DNA of 64,000 nt, taken from IMG/VR virus record IMGVR_UViG_3300023174_000034; one strand, given 5' to 3'. Positions within the stretch are counted from its first letter, which is position 1. Each line of letters opens with the position of its first letter. Shown here one piece after another: positions 37,084-51,629 of this stretch. The translations under genes were made by a program, and so were the position numbers. Under the pieces are notes generated by a model. The model made no database searches. It had not been told where the DNA came from and saw nothing but the letters and a program-made list of their open reading frames with translations. This DNA comes from a virus (Duplodnaviria; Heunggongvirae; Uroviricota; Caudoviricetes).

Positions 37084-37433
37084 TCAAAGGTCTAATGGGC
37101 AGTCGCGGAGTAGTAGTAGATGGTGGCAACACCTCCGTGCCCTTTGTTAACGCAAATATCAACAATCCCATGACAGGTATGATTCGTATCCATGGAACTG
37201 ACATGCAGGTATTTGACGGATCAGGCTGGCTCAGTATGACTACCAGCTATGCCACAGTAGGACTAGAACCCACTGCCGAAGAAGCCATTAAATGGGTCAG
37301 GCACAAGATGGCAGAAGAGCAAGATCTCAAAGCTCGCATGGAACAACATCCTGGATTAAAGGATGCTTATGAGAAGTTCCGGATCATGGATATCCTAACA
37401 CTAGAAGAAAAGAAGCATGGACAAGAAGCCTGA
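37080..37433 (+). CDS. Hypothetical protein
   Basis: HPGLKDAYEKF; packed operon. Confidence 0.6.
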   Translation: MIKGLMGSRGVVVDGGNTSVPFVNANINNPMTGMIRIHGTDMQVFDGSGWLSMTTSYATVGLEPTAEEAIKWVRHKMAEEQDLKARMEQHPGLKDAYEKFRIMDILTLEEKKHGQEA

Positions 37434-39012
37434 ACAAGATGATCTAACTAGCAAACAGCTAGACTATGCTGTGTTCTTACCAGCTATCTCGGGCTTCTAT
37501 GCTACCTATGTGGGTAAACAACGTGATCCTGTCAACGGACCTTATGTTGATTCTGCACGTATGCCCACAGGCATGCCTAACATGGAATCAATGAACTGGC
37601 TCAACAGCAAGGAAGCATTGTTCCCTTACAAGTGGAGTTTGTATTCAGGTGGTCATGCCAACCTAGATCTCAACAAGCAAGACTGGTCAGAAGACATGGT
37701 TCGCTCGCGTGAGCCAGGTACGTTCATGCTAGGCGACTCTGGTGGATTCCAGATCGCTAAAGGCCTGTGGGAAGGCGACTGGAAGGCCAACTCGGGTTGC
37801 CCCAAGGCACAAAAGAAACGTGATGCTATTCTCAAATGGTTAGATGGCATTGCTGATTATGGTATGATCCTTGATATTCCAACCTGGGTCATCCACGATA
37901 AGAAAGCGAGCAAGGCATGTCAGATCACCACTTTGCAAGAAGCCGTAGACGCCACAAAGTTCAACAACGAGTACTTCATGAAGCACCGTCAAGGCAAAAA
38001 CAATGGCGGCGCAAAATTTCTAAACGTATTACAAGGCGATAATCATACATCCGCAGAGGATTGGTATCAGATTATGAAAGTCTATTGCGACCCTAGTGTG
38101 TACCCAGACACGCACTTTGATGGCTGGGCCATGGGTGGTCAGAACATGTGTGACATACACTTGGTTCTAAAGAGGTTGGTAGCATTGCGCTACGACAACT
38201 TGTTACAAGAAGGAGTTCATGACTGGATGCACTTCTTGGGTACAAGTAAACTAGAGTGGGCATGTTTGCTCACTGATATTCAACGTGCTGTGCGTAAGTA
38301 TGTGAACCCTAACTTCACAATATCATTTGACTGTGCTAGTCCTTTTCTAGCCACTGCCAATGGACAAATGTACCACCACATTGATTTGCCACACAATGAA
38401 AAGTGGTGTTATCGCATGAGTCCTAGTGCAGACGATAAAAAGTATGCCGTTGATACACGTATGTTCCGCGATGTAGTACTACAGGATGGAATATTTCCGC
38501 ATTTTGACGAGAGCCCAATAAGCCAGCATTTACAGATCAAAGATGTGTGCATTTATAAACCCGGCGATCTAAACAAGATCAAGAAAGAGGGCAAGACCAG
38601 CTGGGATAGCTTTAGCTATGCCCTCATGATGGGTCACAACGTATGGACGCACATTGAAGCAGTGCAACGTGCCAATCGTGAATACGATGCAGGCAAGTTT
38701 CCGACCATGATGTGGAACGAAAAAGGCGACCATGCCCGGTTCCGTGACATCGTGGATGCAATCTTTGCCGCACCAGACAAACAATCTGCACTGGACATTA
38801 TTGAATATTACAACAAGTACTGGATGGACATTATTGGTACTCGCGGATTCAAAGGTAAAAAGACTATGAATTCGCACAGCCAGTTCAATGTGCTATTCGA
38901 ATTTGTTGAAGAAACAGAACCTGAGGAGACAGAACGCGATGAGAAAATGGCAGAAGATTCAGCAGAAACTAGACTTGGAAATCTTGTTAGAGACGAACAC
39001 GGAGGAGATTAA
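37417..39012 (+). CDS. dpdA: TGT-fold transglycosylase, DpdA-like
   Basis: GDSGGFQ, MILDIP, LNVLQG, GWAMGG, MHFLG, SFDCASP; clustered with folE/queD/queE. Confidence 0.85.
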   Translation: MDKKPEQDDLTSKQLDYAVFLPAISGFYATYVGKQRDPVNGPYVDSARMPTGMPNMESMNWLNSKEALFPYKWSLYSGGHANLDLNKQDWSEDMVRSREPGTFMLGDSGGFQIAKGLWEGDWKANSGCPKAQKKRDAILKWLDGIADYGMILDIPTWVIHDKKASKACQITTLQEAVDATKFNNEYFMKHRQGKNNGGAKFLNVLQGDNHTSAEDWYQIMKVYCDPSVYPDTHFDGWAMGGQNMCDIHLVLKRLVALRYDNLLQEGVHDWMHFLGTSKLEWACLLTDIQRAVRKYVNPNFTISFDCASPFLATANGQMYHHIDLPHNEKWCYRMSPSADDKKYAVDTRMFRDVVLQDGIFPHFDESPISQHLQIKDVCIYKPGDLNKIKKEGKTSWDSFSYALMMGHNVWTHIEAVQRANREYDAGKFPTMMWNEKGDHARFRDIVDAIFAAPDKQSALDIIEYYNKYWMDIIGTRGFKGKKTMNSHSQFNVLFEFVEETEPEETERDEKMAEDSAETRLGNLVRDEHGGD

Positions 39013-39498: not shown

Positions 39499-40013
39499 TG
39501 GATCGTCCAGAACACAACGGTGCTCATATGTTTGTTGGCACTGAAGTAGAACATTCACCAGCACATGGCATGCGTACACTATTTGTAATTGGATTACAAG
39601 ATGCAACCAACGTGGTAGCAGCCGCTCAAGAACACAACTGTGAACACATCTACTTTGGCGCTAACATGAGCTTTCCTAATCCGTCGGTTAACAACAGCGG
39701 CGTTTGGAATCAGTGGGAAAACATGATTGGCTCATGTTTGATGCACGGCGCTTGGTGTACACTAGATATTGATGTCACCGCCGCAGAAGGTCTATTAGAA
39801 AGCACACTGATTGACCACGATCGCTTTATTCCAATGATCAGTGTAAAATTGCCCTATGCCAAACTATACAACTACAACACAACAATCAAGATCGACGACC
39901 GAGACTTCCAGGCAACCAACCCAGGTGTTTGGTGCCACAGTTTACACGAACTAAGAAATCGTGCAGTGTTTACTGACTGGTCTAAATATACTCAAGACAA
40001 GGTAATCAAATGA
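39498..40013 (+). CDS. Hypothetical protein in deazaguanine locus
   Basis: G.EVEH, HIYFGAN, DD.DF.ATNPGVWCH. Confidence 0.65.
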   Translation: MDRPEHNGAHMFVGTEVEHSPAHGMRTLFVIGLQDATNVVAAAQEHNCEHIYFGANMSFPNPSVNNSGVWNQWENMIGSCLMHGAWCTLDIDVTAAEGLLESTLIDHDRFIPMISVKLPYAKLYNYNTTIKIDDRDFQATNPGVWCHSLHELRNRAVFTDWSKYTQDKVIK

Positions 40014-40450
40014 CAGTACAAGCATACAGAGAACAAACAGAAGTAAACCGCGAAGTAGCGGATAGAATGATCTGGGTTAAGTTTCAAAAGGAAGGTATCC
40101 ATTGCTATCCAGCGGCGGCAACTGAGCCCTTGCTAGCAGATGTATCTTTTTTGGCCAACCCGCATCGACACATATTTCATTTCAGAGTTTCGATCAGCGT
40201 GTTCCATAATGATCGCGATATTGAATTCATCCAATTCAAGCGTTGGTGTGAAGGCCTTTATTCAGGTGGCACACTGGCACTCGATTATAAGTCATGCGAG
40301 ATGATTGCAGACGACTTATATATCCAAATTAACTTGCGCTATCCAGGTAGACATGTTATTATAGAGGTAAGCGAAGATAACGAAAACGGTTGTAGTATCG
40401 TTTACGAAGATCCTCGCACACCCGAAACAACCTTCCATCACCCAGTCTAA
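40010..40450 (+). CDS. dpdL: T-fold QueD paralogue, DpdL-like (putative CDG decarboxylase)
   Basis: LANPHRHIF (LxxxHRHxF), DRDIEFI, SCEMIA, VSEDNENG. Confidence 0.7.
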   Translation: MTVQAYREQTEVNREVADRMIWVKFQKEGIHCYPAAATEPLLADVSFLANPHRHIFHFRVSISVFHNDRDIEFIQFKRWCEGLYSGGTLALDYKSCEMIADDLYIQINLRYPGRHVIIEVSEDNENGCSIVYEDPRTPETTFHHPV

Positions 40451-43898: not shown

Positions 43899-44902
43899 GC
43901 ACAGTATTCGTAACAGGTGCAACAGGCTACATTGGTAGTCATGTTTGCAAAGCATTGAAACAAGCAGGCTACGAAGTTGTCGGGCTTGATCGTGTGCATA
44001 GAGAGCACACAATGAAGCACATGGATCGTTTTATTGAAGCCGACTATCATAGTTCCATGTGCTTTGATGCACTAGCAAAAGAACAACCAGATGCTGTTAT
44101 TCATCTAGCAGGTACCAGCCTGGTTGGCCCAAGCATGGCAGACCCTGGCGAATACTACACCAACAACGTGGCCAAATCTGCGGCATTTTTAGATGTTGTA
44201 CGTTGGTTGGAAAAAATGCCTGTGGTTGTGTTTTCAAGTTCAGCCGCTGTGTATGGCAATCCAGAAGTAGATGTCATTTACGAAAATCAGCCATACAATC
44301 CAACCAGCCCATATGGTCAGACCAAGGCCATGATTGAAATCATACTAGTGGATTTTAACAAAGCATACGGTTTGAAAAGTGCAAGCCTGCGCTACTTCAA
44401 TGCCTGTGGTGCTGATCTAGATGGTGAACTAGGACAAGAGCCGGGCGCCACACACATCATTGCTAGACTACTAGAATCAAAACAAGCAGGTGTTCCATTC
44501 ACGCTGTATGGTGAAGATTATGACACACCAGATGGCTCTTGCATTCGTGACTATGTGCATGTGGTTGACCTAGCAGATGCACATGTAAAGGCTGTGAGCT
44601 ACTTGTTGAGTGACATGGAAGAGTGCATTGCAGTCAACCTGGGTGGTACATCTGGATTGACAAAAGGCCAAGGACACAGCAACAAAGAGATCATATCCGC
44701 AGTAGCAGATATAGTAGGCAACATTGATGTTGAGCCGGGTCCACGCAGGCCAGGTGATCCTGCTAGATTGGTTGCAGGCACCCTGACTTCTGTTACCAAG
44801 CTAGGATGGAGTCCCAAACATTCAGATCTTAAGACCATCATCGAGTCAGCATGGAAGTGGTATAATAACCCGCCACAATCCATTGACAATTCATCTAAAT
44901 AA
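43895..44902 (+). CDS. galE: UDP-glucose 4-epimerase
   Basis: GATGYIGSH, FSSSAAVYG, YGQTK, LRYFNA, RDYVHV.DLA.AH. Confidence 0.92.
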   Translation: MSTVFVTGATGYIGSHVCKALKQAGYEVVGLDRVHREHTMKHMDRFIEADYHSSMCFDALAKEQPDAVIHLAGTSLVGPSMADPGEYYTNNVAKSAAFLDVVRWLEKMPVVVFSSSAAVYGNPEVDVIYENQPYNPTSPYGQTKAMIEIILVDFNKAYGLKSASLRYFNACGADLDGELGQEPGATHIIARLLESKQAGVPFTLYGEDYDTPDGSCIRDYVHVVDLADAHVKAVSYLLSDMEECIAVNLGGTSGLTKGQGHSNKEIISAVADIVGNIDVEPGPRRPGDPARLVAGTLTSVTKLGWSPKHSDLKTIIESAWKWYNNPPQSIDNSSK

Positions 44903-44952
44903 CTTTACAATACAAACAAAGTCATCCACGACTATTAACTCGGAGAAATAAA
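44883..44952 (+). promoter_or_regulatory. folE promoter and structured leader
   Basis: TTGACA(44883)-17-TACAAT with internal TAAATA; leader AGTC-ATCCAC-GACT-ATTAACTC-GGAG. Confidence 0.65.
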
Positions 44953-45696
44953 TTGGTAGATACACAAACAGCATTAGACGCCATGGCCGGAGACGGCGGC
45001 TACGAACTAGGCACAGCACACAAACACATCGCATTCAAACTGCGCCGCGATAACAAGCGTTTCTGGGCAGGCGACAACATCAGCGATTACGTCGACGAAC
45101 AGGCCAAAGAACAGTTAATCGATGAAGCAACAGCGGCATTTGAACTTGTGCTAGATACGCTACTAATTGATCGCCAAACAGATCCCAACAGCCGAGGCAC
45201 AGCTCGACGCCTGGCCAAGATGTACTTTAATGAAATAATGGCAGGAAGATATGATCCAGCACCAGATGCAACAGCGTTCCCAAATGATTCGGCAGACCGT
45301 TACGAAGGCATGCTTGTGGTTAGAAGTGAACTACGCTCAATGTGTAGTCACCATCACCAGCCTGTATCTGGTGTCGCTTATATTGGGATTATCGCCGCAG
45401 AAAAGCTCATTGGTTTGTCTAAGTACACTCGCATTGCTCAGTGGTGCGCTCGTCGCGGCACTTTGCAAGAAGAACTGGCCAATGACATTGCACGAGAAAT
45501 ACAAAAAGCCACAGGAGCCACAGACCTAGGTGTGTACATTCAAGCTGTACACGGATGCTGTGAGAATCGTGGTATCATGGCACACTCCAGTCTAACGCAG
45601 ACTACTGTGCTCAAAGGTGCATTCAAGGACGATGGCAATACAAAGAAGGAATTCTTTGATAACATTAAACTACAACAGGAGTTTGCACCAAGATGA
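44953..45696 (+). CDS. folE: GTP cyclohydrolase I
   Basis: SMCSHH, IGLSK..R, LQE, HGCC..RG; TTG start. Confidence 0.96.
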   Translation: MVDTQTALDAMAGDGGYELGTAHKHIAFKLRRDNKRFWAGDNISDYVDEQAKEQLIDEATAAFELVLDTLLIDRQTDPNSRGTARRLAKMYFNEIMAGRYDPAPDATAFPNDSADRYEGMLVVRSELRSMCSHHHQPVSGVAYIGIIAAEKLIGLSKYTRIAQWCARRGTLQEELANDIAREIQKATGATDLGVYIQAVHGCCENRGIMAHSSLTQTTVLKGAFKDDGNTKKEFFDNIKLQQEFAPR

Positions 45697-45935: not shown

Positions 45936-46492
45936 TTGCCGTAAGAGAAAAAGATTCTGCAGACTTTGATCTAGAAGCATTCATTGACCTGTTTGATGAA
46001 GCACTTACCAGTGATGATCCTAGTGTACAAAAGACTCTACAGCACCTAATGGTCATTGCGGCCCTGGCACGTAATCATGCTAGACACGATCAGCGCAACG
46101 GTCCTTTGCGTCGACTATTTGATGATCAGAAAAATATCATTCGGAGGTTGGAAAGACTTGAGTCAGATCAACAAAACAAACAAGTCTACCCAGGTGGAGG
46201 CTTGGGAGGCGGAAACGTTCCGCTTGGCCCTTATGTGCCAGTTACCCCTTGGCCAGGCACAGGTGGAGGCACAAGTTGGCCGCCACAACCTGGAACTTAT
46301 CCCCCAGGAACCATCTGGGGCCAAAGTGGCACAGCCACAAGCATGACCCTAGATCCAGGATTTGGAGCAGTTCCTCCAGTGGTTGCCAAACAAACTACTG
46401 CATCCGAAGCGGTTGCAGAACGTATAGAAGATCTGTTAAAATCTGACTATAAAGGTTCATCTGTAGGAACAAAGAATGTTAAAATTACTTGA
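45932..46492 (+). CDS. Hypothetical protein with P/G-rich region
   Basis: 186-aa ORF. Confidence 0.6.
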   Translation: MIAVREKDSADFDLEAFIDLFDEALTSDDPSVQKTLQHLMVIAALARNHARHDQRNGPLRRLFDDQKNIIRRLERLESDQQNKQVYPGGGLGGGNVPLGPYVPVTPWPGTGGGTSWPPQPGTYPPGTIWGQSGTATSMTLDPGFGAVPPVVAKQTTASEAVAERIEDLLKSDYKGSSVGTKNVKIT

Positions 46493-46946
46493 ACAGTTGG
46501 GGCGTAAACGTATCATCAATGATCGAATCAACAACGAGCCATATATGGAACGTTACTATTTGTTCTTGAAAGATCGTCAGCGTTTTCCGTTTAATGTTTT
46601 CTTGCACAAGTTCCTTAAGGGTGATCCAGATGATGTACACGATCATCCGTGGCCTTATGCAACACTGATCTTGAAAGGCGGTTACTATGAATGGGTTCCA
46701 GAGTTTAATTCAAAGAATGAAATGGTGGGTCAGCGGCGTTATTGGCGTGGCCCCGGACATTTCCGCATTTGTGCTCCTACTTCTTATCATCGCATTGAGC
46801 TAGAGCCAGGAGTAACTGCATGGACTTTGTTTGTGCCAGGCCCACACAAGCGTGAATGGGGTTTCTTGACAGGCAAGGGTAAAAATCAAAAATGGGAACA
46901 CAATGAAGATTATCTCACCCGGCGTAGTAGCATTAAGGCCGTTTAA
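46476..46946 (+). CDS. Cupin-fold protein
   Basis: HDHPW...GGYYE...HRI...WTLF..GP..R.WGF. Confidence 0.75.
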   Translation: MLKLLEQLGRKRIINDRINNEPYMERYYLFLKDRQRFPFNVFLHKFLKGDPDDVHDHPWPYATLILKGGYYEWVPEFNSKNEMVGQRRYWRGPGHFRICAPTSYHRIELEPGVTAWTLFVPGPHKREWGFLTGKGKNQKWEHNEDYLTRRSSIKAV

Positions 46947-47235
46947 GATTCATACCAATGCTCTTTCTCAAGAGATGGTAGACTTTTGGGTCATGATGGG
47001 AGCAGAAGCACAGGTGATCGGCGACACATATCACAGTCGCAAAGGTCTTGTGCATGAGACAAACTATCGCATACGCATGGGCCGTGGCGACTGGAGTCAC
47101 ATGTTCAATGATGGTAGTGGACACTATATCATTCACCTGCGTGAAGAATTTGCACCCGAAGCTAGTCTTTTTATCATGAAGTACATAGACAATATTATCA
47201 ACCACGACTGTAAGGTACCGGAGCCTCAACTATGA
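46903..47235 (+). CDS. Hypothetical protein
   Basis: 110-aa ORF filling gap. Confidence 0.5.
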   Translation: MKIISPGVVALRPFKIHTNALSQEMVDFWVMMGAEAQVIGDTYHSRKGLVHETNYRIRMGRGDWSHMFNDGSGHYIIHLREEFAPEASLFIMKYIDNIINHDCKVPEPQL

Positions 47236-47792
47236 AACTGATTCACAACAACAAACATCTAAACACCTGGGTGCATAAGATCATCCGCGAAATGGCGCAG
47301 GATAACTGGCGCCCAGACTACATTGTGGGTATCACACGTGGCGGGCTTGTGCCTGCTACCATGCTGAGCCATTATCTTGATGTGCCCATGCACACCTTGA
47401 ACATCAGCTTCCGAGATGCTGATGTTGGACCTGAAAGCAATCTTTGGATGGCAGAAGATGCCTTTGGCTATGTGCCATACGAAGGTACAGAGTTGCCGGC
47501 TCCCTTGGATCGTGAGGTAACTGATCCTGCACAGCGCAAAAAGATTCTAATTGTAGACGACATCAATGATTCAGGCCGCACACTGAACTGGATCAAGGAA
47601 GACTGGCCCAGTGGTTGTTTACCACATGCACCTGCGTGGAAAGCGATTTGGCACGATAGTGTGCGCTTTGCTGTGATGGTAGATAATTTGAGCAGTGGAT
47701 TTCAAGATGTAGACTACTGTGGCACAGAAATTAACAAAGAGGAAACACCATGTTGGATTGTGTTTCCGTGGGAAAATTGGTGGGAGAACTAA
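47232..47792 (+). CDS. Purine phosphoribosyltransferase (Gpt/Hpt-like)
   Basis: GITRGGL, LIVDDINDSGRT, WIVFPWE. Confidence 0.88.
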   Translation: MKLIHNNKHLNTWVHKIIREMAQDNWRPDYIVGITRGGLVPATMLSHYLDVPMHTLNISFRDADVGPESNLWMAEDAFGYVPYEGTELPAPLDREVTDPAQRKKILIVDDINDSGRTLNWIKEDWPSGCLPHAPAWKAIWHDSVRFAVMVDNLSSGFQDVDYCGTEINKEETPCWIVFPWENWWEN

Positions 47793-48285: not shown

Positions 48286-48371
48286 ATAATTCCCAAGCGG
48301 CCTTTTCTGGCATTCATCCCGCTATACAAACTCTGCAGGCCTATGCTATAATCTAACATAGGAGAAACAGC
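48283..48371 (+). promoter_or_regulatory. Structured queD leader (riboswitch candidate)
   Basis: TAAATA; stem AGCGG/CCGCT; A-rich tail; SD-sequestering CCTATG/CATAGG hairpin. Confidence 0.55.
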
Positions 48372-48878
48372 ATGTCAACACTACACCCAGTGGTATACAA
48401 ATACCAAAGCACCAAAGAGTATCATGACGCATTCCCATGCGCTTATCGTCAATGGAGAAGTGACAGTCATTGTAATCTAATACATGGCTACTCATTCTCA
48501 ATGAAGTTCTATTTTGGAACCAATGACCTAGACGTTCGCAACTGGGCCGCGGACTACGGTGGACTCAAAGAACTCAAGAAGATACTTGAAGATCAATTTG
48601 ATCATACTCTAATTGTAGCACAAGATGATCCAGAAATGGCCACATACAAGCTACTGCAAGAACGGAACATGGCCAAGGTTGTGGTTCTACCACGACTAGG
48701 TTGCGAAGGCCTAAGCGACATGCTGTACAAGTATGTGAATGGTGTGTACATTCCGGACATGTGGGGTCCAAGCGAAGCCGCCCGTTTATGGTGTTATCGT
48801 GTGGAAGTTCGAGAAACCCAAAGTAACATGGCTTTCCGTGAAGGTCATCGCGAATGGAATGAAAATCTACTTGACTAA
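48372..48878 (+). CDS. queD: 6-carboxytetrahydropterin synthase QueD (copy 1)
   Basis: SHCNLIHGY, DYGGLK, FDH, GCE, VRET. Confidence 0.88.
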   Translation: MSTLHPVVYKYQSTKEYHDAFPCAYRQWRSDSHCNLIHGYSFSMKFYFGTNDLDVRNWAADYGGLKELKKILEDQFDHTLIVAQDDPEMATYKLLQERNMAKVVVLPRLGCEGLSDMLYKYVNGVYIPDMWGPSEAARLWCYRVEVRETQSNMAFREGHREWNENLLD

Positions 48879-48930
48879 CATCTAGTGTTGTGTTACACTG
48901 TATTACTTTCAATCACTCTTGGAGTTTTCA

Positions 48931-49476
48931 ATGGCACGTAGATTTAGCACAAAAACTTATGGTAACGAACGTGGTCTAAGCTGTACCTTTCGACAACATG
49001 CCGCAACGCATAGTCATTGCAGTCTGTTACATGGATACAGTTTAGGTTTCAAATTTGTGTTCGAAGCAGAACAACTTGATGCACGTAACTGGGTACAAGA
49101 CTTTGGCGGCCTAGGTGAGCTCAAAGAGTTCCTTGAAAAAACATTTGATCATACCACTATTGTTGCAGAAGACGATCCACTAATCAAGCATTTCCAGAAG
49201 ATGGCTGGCTGGAGTGCAGTCAAAGACATGCATGGCAAGCCTGAAGAAGTTCAAGGCCACCCTGTAGGCAACAAGGGTGTGATCAAACTGATCACAATGC
49301 CTGCTGTGGGTTGCGAAGCGTTTGCTGAGTATGTGTGGCGCTGGACTGATCAATGGTTAAAAGAAGATCCAACCAACAAGTATCAAAACTTGTTGGGAGA
49401 TGACATGCAACGTGTCAAGATTCTAACAGTTGAAGTGTTTGAGCACGGTAGCAATTCAGCAATCTACGAAGGGTAA
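48931..49476 (+). CDS. queD: QueD (copy 2)
   Basis: SHCSLLHGY, DFGGL, FDH, GCE, VFEH; own TTGACT promoter at 48871. Confidence 0.88.
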   Translation: MARRFSTKTYGNERGLSCTFRQHAATHSHCSLLHGYSLGFKFVFEAEQLDARNWVQDFGGLGELKEFLEKTFDHTTIVAEDDPLIKHFQKMAGWSAVKDMHGKPEEVQGHPVGNKGVIKLITMPAVGCEAFAEYVWRWTDQWLKEDPTNKYQNLLGDDMQRVKILTVEVFEHGSNSAIYEG

Positions 49477-49879: not shown

Positions 49880-50739
49880 TAATAACAGGTGATCGCGGCC
49901 TGATTGGCAGCGAACTCAAGGCTCGGCTACTAGCACAAGGCATCCGAGTCCACTCACTAGACTGGAGTGATCGTGGTAAAACATACACCTTGGAAGAGCC
50001 GCTGGAGTGGATTTTCCACATGGGTGCTATCAGCGAAACTATTGCCAGTGACTGGCAAGAGTTGGTCAAGAAGAATATCGAAGACACGCAGAACTGGATT
50101 CAGTTTGCACAACAAAACAACTGCGGCATTACCTACGCAAGTTCAGCAAGCCTATACGGCACTTGGTCAAACAGTCCAGAATGGGGGCCGGTACAACCCA
50201 TGCACATGTATGGGGTGAGCAAGCTGGCAGTGGACAACTGGTGTGCCACACAACAATTCACAGTACCAGTACAAGGTGTGCGTTTCTTCAATGTGTACGG
50301 ACGCAACGAAGGGCACAAACAACAACCAAGTCCCATACGCCGTTACATTGAACAAGGTATTGTGCAACGCAAGCTAACAGTATTCCAGCATGAAGGTAGA
50401 CTAGGCTCACGTGACTTCATAAGTATAGATGACTGTATAAATGCCATGCTTCGTCTAAAGGACGCAGGTGTAAGCGGTGTATACAACGTTGGCACAGGTG
50501 TGCAACTGACATTCAAAGATATTGCAGAATCAATACAAAAACGATTTGGTGTTGAAAATGTACAGGTACTTGTTGTGCCCATGCCTGATCATATGGTCAA
50601 AACATATCAGTGGGAAAGTCAAGCAAACTTAAATAAACTCAAAGCCGCCATTGGCGAGTGGAATCCACTTTCGGTTGATGACTGGCTTGAAGAAAATTTT
50701 GAAACTCTATATAATAAGATACAGAAGGAAATATTATGA
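49873..50739 (+). CDS. ADP-L-glycero-D-manno-heptose 6-epimerase-like SDR
   Basis: TGDRGLIG, IFHMGAISET, YASSASLYG, YGVSK, RFFNVYG, RDFI. Confidence 0.8.
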   Translation: MVIITGDRGLIGSELKARLLAQGIRVHSLDWSDRGKTYTLEEPLEWIFHMGAISETIASDWQELVKKNIEDTQNWIQFAQQNNCGITYASSASLYGTWSNSPEWGPVQPMHMYGVSKLAVDNWCATQQFTVPVQGVRFFNVYGRNEGHKQQPSPIRRYIEQGIVQRKLTVFQHEGRLGSRDFISIDDCINAMLRLKDAGVSGVYNVGTGVQLTFKDIAESIQKRFGVENVQVLVVPMPDHMVKTYQWESQANLNKLKAAIGEWNPLSVDDWLEENFETLYNKIQKEIL

Positions 50740-51629
50740 AACTAAAAGTAAGTGAAATGTTCTACAGCCTACAAGGTGAAGGTCGCTTTGTAGGCGTGCC
50801 TAGCGTGTTCTTGCGTACATTTGGTTGTAACTTCAAATGCGAAGGGTTTGGCATGCCACGTGGTGAGGCCAGTCAAGAACGCAATCTAGTAGATGCTACC
50901 AAGTATGAAAAGTTTACAGACCTACCACTTGTACACACCGGTTGCGACAGCTATGCTTCATGGGATCCCAAGTTCAAAGATCTAAGTCCTGCAAAAGACA
51001 TCGACGCTATTGTTACTGAAATGCTGGCAATGACTCCGAATGGTCGTTGGCAACAATACAATGGTAACCCAGTACACTTGGTTATCACAGGTGGTGAGCC
51101 ACTGTTGGGTTGGCAAAAGGTGTATCCTGACTTGCTAGAACACCCAGCCATGATTGGGCTAGATAACATCACGTTTGAGACCAATGGCACCCAGCCGCTG
51201 ACGGATGAGTTCCAGGACTACATTGAACACTGGCATACACAATGGCGTGGTACCCATGAAGATGATCATCAAGAGTACATTGGTCGTTTCCGTGAAATGC
51301 AATTCTCTGTTAGTCCCAAGCTGAGTGCGTCGGGCGAAAAGTGGGAAGAAGCTATCTGTCCAGAGATCATTGCTGAGTATCAGCGTGTGGGAGTCACATA
51401 CTTGAAGTTTGTGGTTGAAAAGCCAGAAGACTTTGCAGAAATTAACCAAGCCGTGGGAGAATACCGCTTGGCAGGCTTCTTAGGGCAAGTGTATGTTATG
51501 CCAGTTGGTGGTACCACACAAGGTTACGATGCCAACAAACTTGCCATCGCCAATGAATGTTTGCGCCAAGGTTATGCCTATAGTCCACGTCTACATGTAG
51601 ACTTGTGGGGCAATGGCTGGGGCAAGTGA
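50736..51629 (+). CDS. queE: 7-carboxy-7-deazaguanine synthase QueE
   Basis: SEMFYSLQGEG...FLRTFGCNFKC, CDS, VITGGEP, ETNG, SPK, PRLH. Confidence 0.92.
   Translation: MKLKVSEMFYSLQGEGRFVGVPSVFLRTFGCNFKCEGFGMPRGEASQERNLVDATKYEKFTDLPLVHTGCDSYASWDPKFKDLSPAKDIDAIVTEMLAMTPNGRWQQYNGNPVHLVITGGEPLLGWQKVYPDLLEHPAMIGLDNITFETNGTQPLTDEFQDYIEHWHTQWRGTHEDDHQEYIGRFREMQFSVSPKLSASGEKWEEAICPEIIAEYQRVGVTYLKFVVEKPEDFAEINQAVGEYRLAGFLGQVYVMPVGGTTQGYDANKLAIANECLRQGYAYSPRLHVDLWGNGWGK

Follow-up and report, generated by a model that had tools for sequence, protein, structure and literature searches.

A conserved preQ1-I-like RNA element in the folE leader of large uncultured phages, probably a translation switch

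How might a phage control folE, the gene for the first step of its 7-deazaguanine pathway, through a leader of only about 26 bases? The question is raised by the window, by which we mean the whole stretch of 64,000 nt of phage DNA that was analysed (IMG/VR record IMGVR_UViG_3300023174_000034). Here, a sequence-only reading had placed a miniature preQ1-I-like pseudoknot between a transcription start near 44918 and a weak UUG start codon of folE. Our comparative analysis indicates that essentially the whole 5' leader of folE is a cis-regulatory RNA, probably a riboswitch-like translation switch. All letters on which the sequence-only reading relied were found where it had placed them, and the RNA start that we predict from the promoter position, about 44917-44919, fits the one it claimed. 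The leader and its gene have the following features:

44883..44911, + strand: sigma-70-type promoter TTGACA-17-TACAAT, matching at 11 of 12 positions and the best of the region (TTGACA at 44883-88, TACAAT at 44906-11, 17-nt spacer)
44920..44923, + strand: 5' arm of P1, AGUC, pairing with 44930-44933; these four pairs covary among 93 distinct sequences
44924..44929, + strand: hairpin loop AUCCAC, with UCC at 44925-27 and an unpaired C at 44929
44930..44933, + strand: 3' arm of P1, GACU, covarying with the 5' arm
44934..44941, + strand: linker and candidate L3, AUUAACUC, whose UAAC plus UC block abuts the Shine-Dalgarno (SD) sequence
44942..44945, + strand: SD sequence GGAG, in which GG (44942-43) complements the loop CC and A (44944) complements the loop U
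44953..45696, + strand: folE (GTP cyclohydrolase I) with a UUG start; Pfam PF01227 at 1.1e-37, with PHROG and NCBIfam in agreement

The folE product has 247 aa, and a 7-nt spacer separates GGAG from the UUG at 44953. This start codon, which had been chosen from the window's letters, is backed by the ATG that orthologues carry at the aligned position; of 146 distinct copies of the motif, 82 are followed by a UUG start and 63 by AUG. From P1 through the SD sequence, the element spans about 24-26 nt. As the -10 box of the relatives' promoters ends 2-14 nt (mode 8) upstream of P1, the hairpin lies at the extreme 5' end of the RNA. Two conserved promoter types are found upstream of the motif in the relatives (L002, L004, L008 and other loci). 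The first, TTGACA...CTAAATAA...TACAAT, is that of the window (44883-44911), and the CTAAATAA block that lies between its -35 and -10 boxes has the look of a promoter element peculiar to phages; the second is TAGTTGCAATAAACTATTAGAGATGTTAAAAT.

Since the single-sequence fold of the leader is ordinary (MFE -3.5 kcal/mol, z = +0.47 relative to shuffles), the sequence of the window alone proves nothing, and the case has to be made by comparison. Searching viral contigs at the protein level yielded 80 FolE loci of 79-89% identity. Many of their contigs are 100-356 kb long, one being a complete genome of 355 kb, so the carriers are large phages. The leaders of most of these loci, found by protein alone, carry the element, with the consensus stem-AUCCNC-stem'-(N)UAAC(A)UC-GGAG-5..10 nt-start. 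In total, well above a hundred uncultured phages carry the motif ahead of folE, with one copy per folE locus. When the whole viral collection was scanned with the pattern, an ORF for FolE (37-88% identity) lay directly 3' in 106 of the 120 matches listed, the remaining ones being mostly truncated loci or misassigned starts, together with five stemless chance matches. In contrast, the same pattern run against 596 Gb of bacterial and archaeal genomes was followed by FolE in none of the 120 matches listed, whose stems are at chance level, 75 being without any pair. In two of the listed viral matches, a 129-aa ORF sits between the motif and folE. An ORF of 129-132 aa occupies this place in three lineages (L028 2597-2986, L053 548-934 and L005 2510-2908); it has no Pfam or PHROG match and no homologue in the window, and it would come first under the control of the motif.

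The covariation analysis that the sequence-only reading had proposed for homologous leaders was carried out on 93 distinct sequences of relatives, in which P1 (AGUC/GACU in the window) is both conserved and covarying. Its four inner pairs covary, each being unpaired in only 0-14 of the 93 sequences, and the P1 covariation score is 0.449, whereas shuffles give 0.102 (0/500) and slid controls no more than 0.07. Among the pair types are C-G/A-U/G-C, A-U/C-G/U-A and G-C/A-U/U-A/C-G, and the stems observed include GUC/GAC, GAC/GUC, GCC/GGC, GGCA/UGCC, CCCA/UGGG and GGG/CCC, while a fifth, outer pair of P1 shows no covariation support in these 93 sequences. The covariance model built from the 93 relatives scores the window copy at 42.1 bits (E = 3e-11) and detects no second copy in the 64-kb window. 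Chance, which had been raised as a possibility because the stems are short, is ruled against by the covariation score and this E-value. The covariation, the folE linkage and the model score together show that the feature is real, acts at the RNA level and is specific to folE. The motif is absent from the closest cultured phages (Phosso, RHph_I1_18, Vibrio 2.275.O and Cellulophaga phiST), and its covariance model gave no match in the folE regions of cultured phages; in Cellulophaga phiST, folE follows directly after queE without a leader.

Because several letters had been fixed in the first pattern, we ran further scans over the entire viral collection, each with a pattern from which the canonical base at one loop position was excluded. 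The first loop A (44924) is fixed. The loop U (44925) is usual, with A in AACCAC (four contigs) and C in ACCCAC (two contigs). The first loop C (44926) yielded a single intact variant, AUUCAC, in which a G-U pair is still possible, and the second (44927) is unchanged in every intact motif. At the fifth position (44928), canonical AUCCNC loops have A in 85 cases, U in 49 and C in three, and never G. The C before the P1 3' arm (44929), which the sequence-only reading had picked out as unpaired, is indeed there and is invariant in intact motifs, the whole-collection scan finding no non-C at this position upstream of folE. As for the pairing proposed between the loop UCC and the GGA of the SD sequence, its CC and GG are near-invariant and complementary, whereas its U-A pair is dispensable, since the loop U can be A or C. 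With both CC and GG invariant, this candidate helix, P2, draws no support from covariation. In one lineage, a 7-nt loop, AUACCUC, occurs with the SD sequence UAGGAA, where CCU can pair with AGG just as it does in the E. coli preQ1-I riboswitch of type III.

The linker is less uniform. It is UAACUC, UAACAUC or, in one lineage, the 13-nt A-rich CAACAAAUAACUC; other variants have AAAC for UAAC, or the linker UCAUCAUC. The window has one extra base between P1 and UAAC compared with most relatives, and the hairpin lies 9, 10, 12, 16 or 21 nt from the SD sequence. Two main forms can be distinguished, one with a closing C-G or G-C pair and UAACUC, the other with a closing A-U pair and UAACAUC. The closing A-U always accompanies the extra linker A, and the forms are unmixed in 167 instances and interspersed on the FolE tree, which requires no fewer than 22 changes; branches with good support impose no fewer than 8 of these. 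This linkage could arise because the linker touches the top of P1, or because leader alleles have recombined; since such recombination may take place between phages, we do not count the linkage as independent co-evolution. About 12% of the FolE loci have lost the hairpin altogether and show the same promoter followed by ...ACAUAGGAGUAAUAAUG, so the element is dispensable. These hairpin-less folE leaders read AUAGGAG where motif leaders read UCGGAG, and the C before GG therefore belongs to the motif. However, UAAC(A)U(A)GGAGAA occurs also in the hairpin-less leaders of queD and of ORF 57146, so the conservation of the linker may be partly a generic feature of leaders or ribosome-binding sites.

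How would such a leader work? The reading that we favour, and to which we give about even chances, is a mini-pseudoknot that is closed by a ligand and hides the SD sequence. We infer its P2 pairing, ligand binding and OFF logic along the following lines. Transcription would begin a few bases before the 4-bp P1, and the loop CC would pair with the GG of GGAG, 12-14 nt downstream, giving a minimal H-type pseudoknot in which the invariant last loop C would lie between both helices. P2 alone would be too weak to hold. A small planar ligand would stack between P1 and P2 and pair with the invariant C, in the manner of preQ1 in its class I riboswitches, and would thus lock the SD sequence away, so that less protein would be translated from the often-weak UUG start. 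The outcome would be feedback on the first step of the phage 7-deazaguanine pathway. The candidate ligand ranked first would be a 7-deazaguanine-type base from FolE-QueD-QueE(-DpdL), namely 7-deazaguanine, CDG or possibly preQ0, and a pterin intermediate such as dihydroneopterin triphosphate would rank second.

The pattern of constraint seems to favour a pseudoknot: the fixed bases are precisely the SD-complementary CC, the junction C, and C plus GG at the SD sequence, while the fifth loop base is free, the motif is linked to a single metabolic gene, and a second, larger, putative preQ1-I-like pseudoknot precedes queD in the same phages. The lack of covariation support for P2, the replaceable loop U, the size of the element, the silence of Rfam, the A at the first loop position, the possibly generic part of the linker and the dispensability weigh against it.

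The nearest known RNAs are the preQ1-I riboswitches. In those of types II and III, P1 is short and conserved, L1 is a single base, and a short loop rich in pyrimidines pairs with the SD sequence; an AC, whose C is the specificity base, immediately precedes the P1 3' strand, and L3 is A-rich, with adenines in the minor groove of P1. They still function as a 30-mer (PMC10622847, PMC11625349). The base before the specificity C is A in types II and III and U in type I (PMC11625349). The structure and function of the E. coli type III riboswitch (yhhQ) have been published (PDB 8FZA; PMC10622847), and the K-12 yhhQ leader (L414 9165-9215) reads UUGGG-UUCCCUCAC-CCCAA-UGGUUAAUCAAAAAGG, the published element being UUGGGUUCCCUCACCCCAAUGGUUAAUCAAAAAGG.

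The folE motif shares with type III the order of its parts (short G/C-rich P1, one-base L1, pyrimidine loop with a CC complementary to the SD GG, (A)C, A-containing L3, SD). By its layout it would, like type III, be a translational element whose aptamer doubles as the expression platform, and both are tied to 7-deazaguanine metabolism. The computed helix energies are comparable, at -3.3 to -6.3 kcal/mol for P1 and -3.4 kcal/mol for the loop-SD pairing in the folE motif, compared with -4.3 and -2.5 kcal/mol, respectively, in E. coli type III. However, the loop of the folE motif has 6 nt (AUCCAC; 7 in one variant), whereas that of type III has 9 nt (UUCCCUCAC), and L2 is reduced to two bases. 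Its first loop base is an invariant A, in contrast to the conserved, ligand-contacting U of the preQ1-I types. Its L3 of 6-8 nt (13 in one variant) has two fixed adenines where that of preQ1-I is A-rich, and its SD sequence is GGAG after an invariant C rather than AAGG. Moreover, it was found only in phages and on folE, whereas type III sits on a transporter gene, and the phages that carry it apparently do not make preQ1. To our knowledge, the element is smaller than any validated aptamer, its 6-nt loop comparing with 9-12 nt in preQ1-I. The preQ1-I riboswitch of T. tengcongensis has a UUAAC-like transition from P1 to L3. Types I and II (B. subtilis queC, T. tengcongensis; RF00522) share with it the C before the P1 3' strand and the H-type pseudoknot logic proposed for the folE motif; their loop, however, measures 10-12 nt, and they end in a long A-rich tail.

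At E <= 10, a scan of 44700-45100 against Rfam found neither preQ1 nor THF-II nor any other relevant family, so the comparison with the Rfam preQ1 models that the sequence-only reading had suggested came out negative. However, the same scan (Rfam 15, E <= 10) also misses the validated type III preQ1-I riboswitch in the E. coli K-12 yhhQ leader, and Rfam negatives are therefore weak evidence for very short pseudoknots. The covariance model of the motif does not match E. coli type III, and the Rfam preQ1 model misses the motif too. In our analysis, the motif appears to work like a trimmed type III preQ1-I riboswitch. We do not file it as a member of that family because of its 6-nt loop, the A in place of U, the few adenines in L3, the fixed C and the blindness of the two models to each other. 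The likeness to class I preQ1 riboswitches that had been claimed from the sequence thus holds for the layout and the junction C, and does not extend to an Rfam match, the first-loop U or the loop length. Likewise, a conserved RNA structure at the 5' end that includes the SD sequence has come through from the original interpretation, while the Rfam match and the U-A pair have not.

Another riboswitch of folE leaders is known, THF-II (folE motif, RF02977; PMC9881143), which likewise controls translation. It recognises a guanine-like 2-amino-4-oxo face, a property that the phage element would share only as a proposal. THF-II is a long hairpin with internal loops found in bacteria, whereas the phage element consists of a 4-bp hairpin and the SD sequence (RF02977; PMC9881143). 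Our literature search found no paper on a riboswitch-like element at a phage folE. The cultured Vibrio phage 2.275.O (349 kb), which encodes QueF, a queuosine biosynthesis protein and a YhhQ-like transporter, has in its folE leader (L213 3744-3774) a canonical-looking preQ1-I hairpin with an A-rich tail, UGCGG-UAAGUAAUC-CCGCA-UUAAAAAAACUA. This leader scores 12.5 bits against RF00522, which is below the gathering score of 39 bits. The folE leader of Sinorhizobium phage Phosso gave nothing relevant in Rfam (E <= 10).

Which compound might be sensed depends on the pathway that folE serves. Here folE stands among further genes of the same route, the window encoding two QueD-like proteins, one QueE-like and one DpdL-like protein:

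48372..49476, + strand: two QueD-like (PTPS) genes, with starts at 48372 and 48919
50736..51629, + strand: QueE-like radical SAM gene (phrog_2076, 2.4e-53), with the QueE N-terminal signature
40010..40450, + strand: DpdL-like T-fold gene, with LANPHRHIF in its translation

LxxxHRHxF has been proposed by Cui et al. as the signature of the CDG decarboxylase DpdL, which they found in phages that have FolE, QueD and QueE and lack QueC (PMC10516641), and LANPHRHIF in the T-fold gene of the window fits it. Of the 21 records searched, 16, which are large contigs, encode QueE close to folE (169-197 bits), the five records without a QueE match including four partial contigs and one chance-hit record. 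QueC gave only weak partial matches (<=35 bits), none of them confident in the complete relatives, and Pfam TGT had no match in five large relatives. The 531-aa ORF at 37417-39012 has no match in NCBIfam, PHROGs or a PDB sequence search. The route is probably a 7-deazaguanine pathway that ends in CDG or 7-deazaguanine rather than in preQ1, and the DpdL-like gene together with the lack of a confident QueC suggests 7-deazaguanine or CDG as the modified base. As the phage appears to be without QueC, preQ1 is not the obvious ligand; the likeliest candidate would be 7-deazaguanine or CDG, acting by end-product feedback.

A conserved downstream module of a cupin, a PRTase and a HIT protein travels with folE (46476-47792 in the window; L005, L028). 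The cupin bears the PHROG label 'cysteine dioxygenase', and the PRTase, which is small and xanthine/HGPRT-like, might have a deazapurine base as its substrate. A 170-kb partial phage contig (G005, the contig of L137) has about 20 radical-SAM-domain ORFs at about 60-117 kb, and G002 has about 10.

A second conserved structured leader, present in more than 50 related contigs, precedes the QueD-like gene 48372-48878 at 48294-48371 of the window. Its P1, AGCGG/CCGCU, covaries (GAGG/CCUC, CCGG/CCGG, GUGG/CCAC). The loop ends in UCAUC, and the tail AUACAAACUC is followed by a loop-complementary segment, the loop/tail complement being, for example, GGCAU/AUGUC and changing to GACGC/GCGUGUC. We read this leader as a putative larger preQ1-I-like pseudoknot with a candidate P2 register. 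A hairpin, CCUAUG/CAUAGG in the window, covers the SD sequence, and its 5' arm overlaps the 3' strand of the candidate P2, an arrangement compatible with a queD element wired to open its SD sequence. Rfam gave no relevant match for it at E <= 10.

Among the other explanations of the folE element, the one that survives best is a protein-binding translational operator, in which a phage or host protein, possibly FolE itself, would bind the AUCCNC hairpin and UCGGAG and block the ribosome, as the operators of phage T4 and of RNA-phage coat proteins do. We consider it unlikely, though well worth weighing. Protein-bound operators known from phages include the T4 gene 32 leader pseudoknot, the T4 RegA sites and the MS2 coat-protein hairpin. 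Like the folE motif, these are small, lie at or over the ribosome-binding site of a phage gene and have fixed loop bases; however, they are defined by a known protein partner, and none is evident for the folE motif. A small hairpin with a covarying stem and a fixed loop has the look of a classic operator, and strict conservation of the loop is just as much a mark of protein operators. In addition, the element falls below validated aptamers in size, and a protein that covers both parts could tolerate the variable distance between the hairpin and the SD sequence. What tells against this explanation is that the presence of no neighbouring gene within 3 kb on either side tracks the motif (a trans factor could be encoded anywhere), that the fixed loop bases are precisely the ones that complement the SD sequence, joined by a C at the preQ1-I specificity position, and that the free fifth loop position fits a flipped-out base. 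Furthermore, the same phages have a second, pseudoknotted preQ1-I-like leader on queD.

Somewhat more doubtful is a leader that needs no ligand, in which the hairpin would guard the mRNA from 5'-end-dependent decay and the loop-SD pairing would lower the translation of folE, either constitutively or in response to temperature or ions. The hairpin does start only a few bases past the predicted RNA start, weak UUG starts are frequent, and the hairpin-less leaders of related phages show that folE works without the element. However, a stabiliser needs no set loop, yet the loop A, the CC, the last loop C and the C that precedes GG stay constant even where the FolE proteins have diverged to 37% identity, while the letters of the stem are free. 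Finally, a DNA-level operator for a repressor just past the promoter, or a chance hairpin, is very improbable even though the element occupies positions +1 to +28 behind a strong promoter and its single-sequence fold is no better than shuffles, since the stem letters change with complementarity kept where a protein-bound DNA palindrome would retain them, a few G-U pairs are valid only in the RNA of this strand, and chance is contradicted by the model E-value of 3e-11 and by the linkage to folE in 106/120 of the viral matches listed versus 0/120 of the bacterial ones listed.

The folE motif is thus best described, as judged from its sequence, as a predicted H-type, SD-sequestering, preQ1-I-like element that is uncatalogued in Rfam. 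A bolder version of the ligand-closed pseudoknot, which we put forward tentatively and would sooner doubt than believe, makes it the smallest riboswitch so far seen in nature (about 24-26 nt), a phage-specific offshoot of preQ1-I with a shortened pocket that senses a ligand new to riboswitches; the candidates would then be 7-deazaguanine or CDG, as the base that these QueC-less, DpdL-bearing phages would make, and dihydroneopterin triphosphate, the product of FolE. If this is true, the folE and queD switches would make up an RNA circuit of two switches, which keeps the first two steps of DNA hypermodification in balance during infection, and the ligand would help to identify the DNA modification of abundant large phages of freshwater and marine environments. 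If a ligand is bound, the known size limit for natural aptamers would be lowered and the limit to which the preQ1-I fold can be trimmed would be shown, and viruses would be seen to carry a riboswitch class for controlling the chemistry by which they modify their own DNA, perhaps with a new ligand such as 7-deazaguanine, CDG or a pterin. Owing to its small size, the element is directly testable as a synthetic 30-40-mer and is attractive as a minimal regulatory part. Even with a protein as the effector, it would be a widespread, uncatalogued family of cis-regulatory RNAs with a clear gene association.
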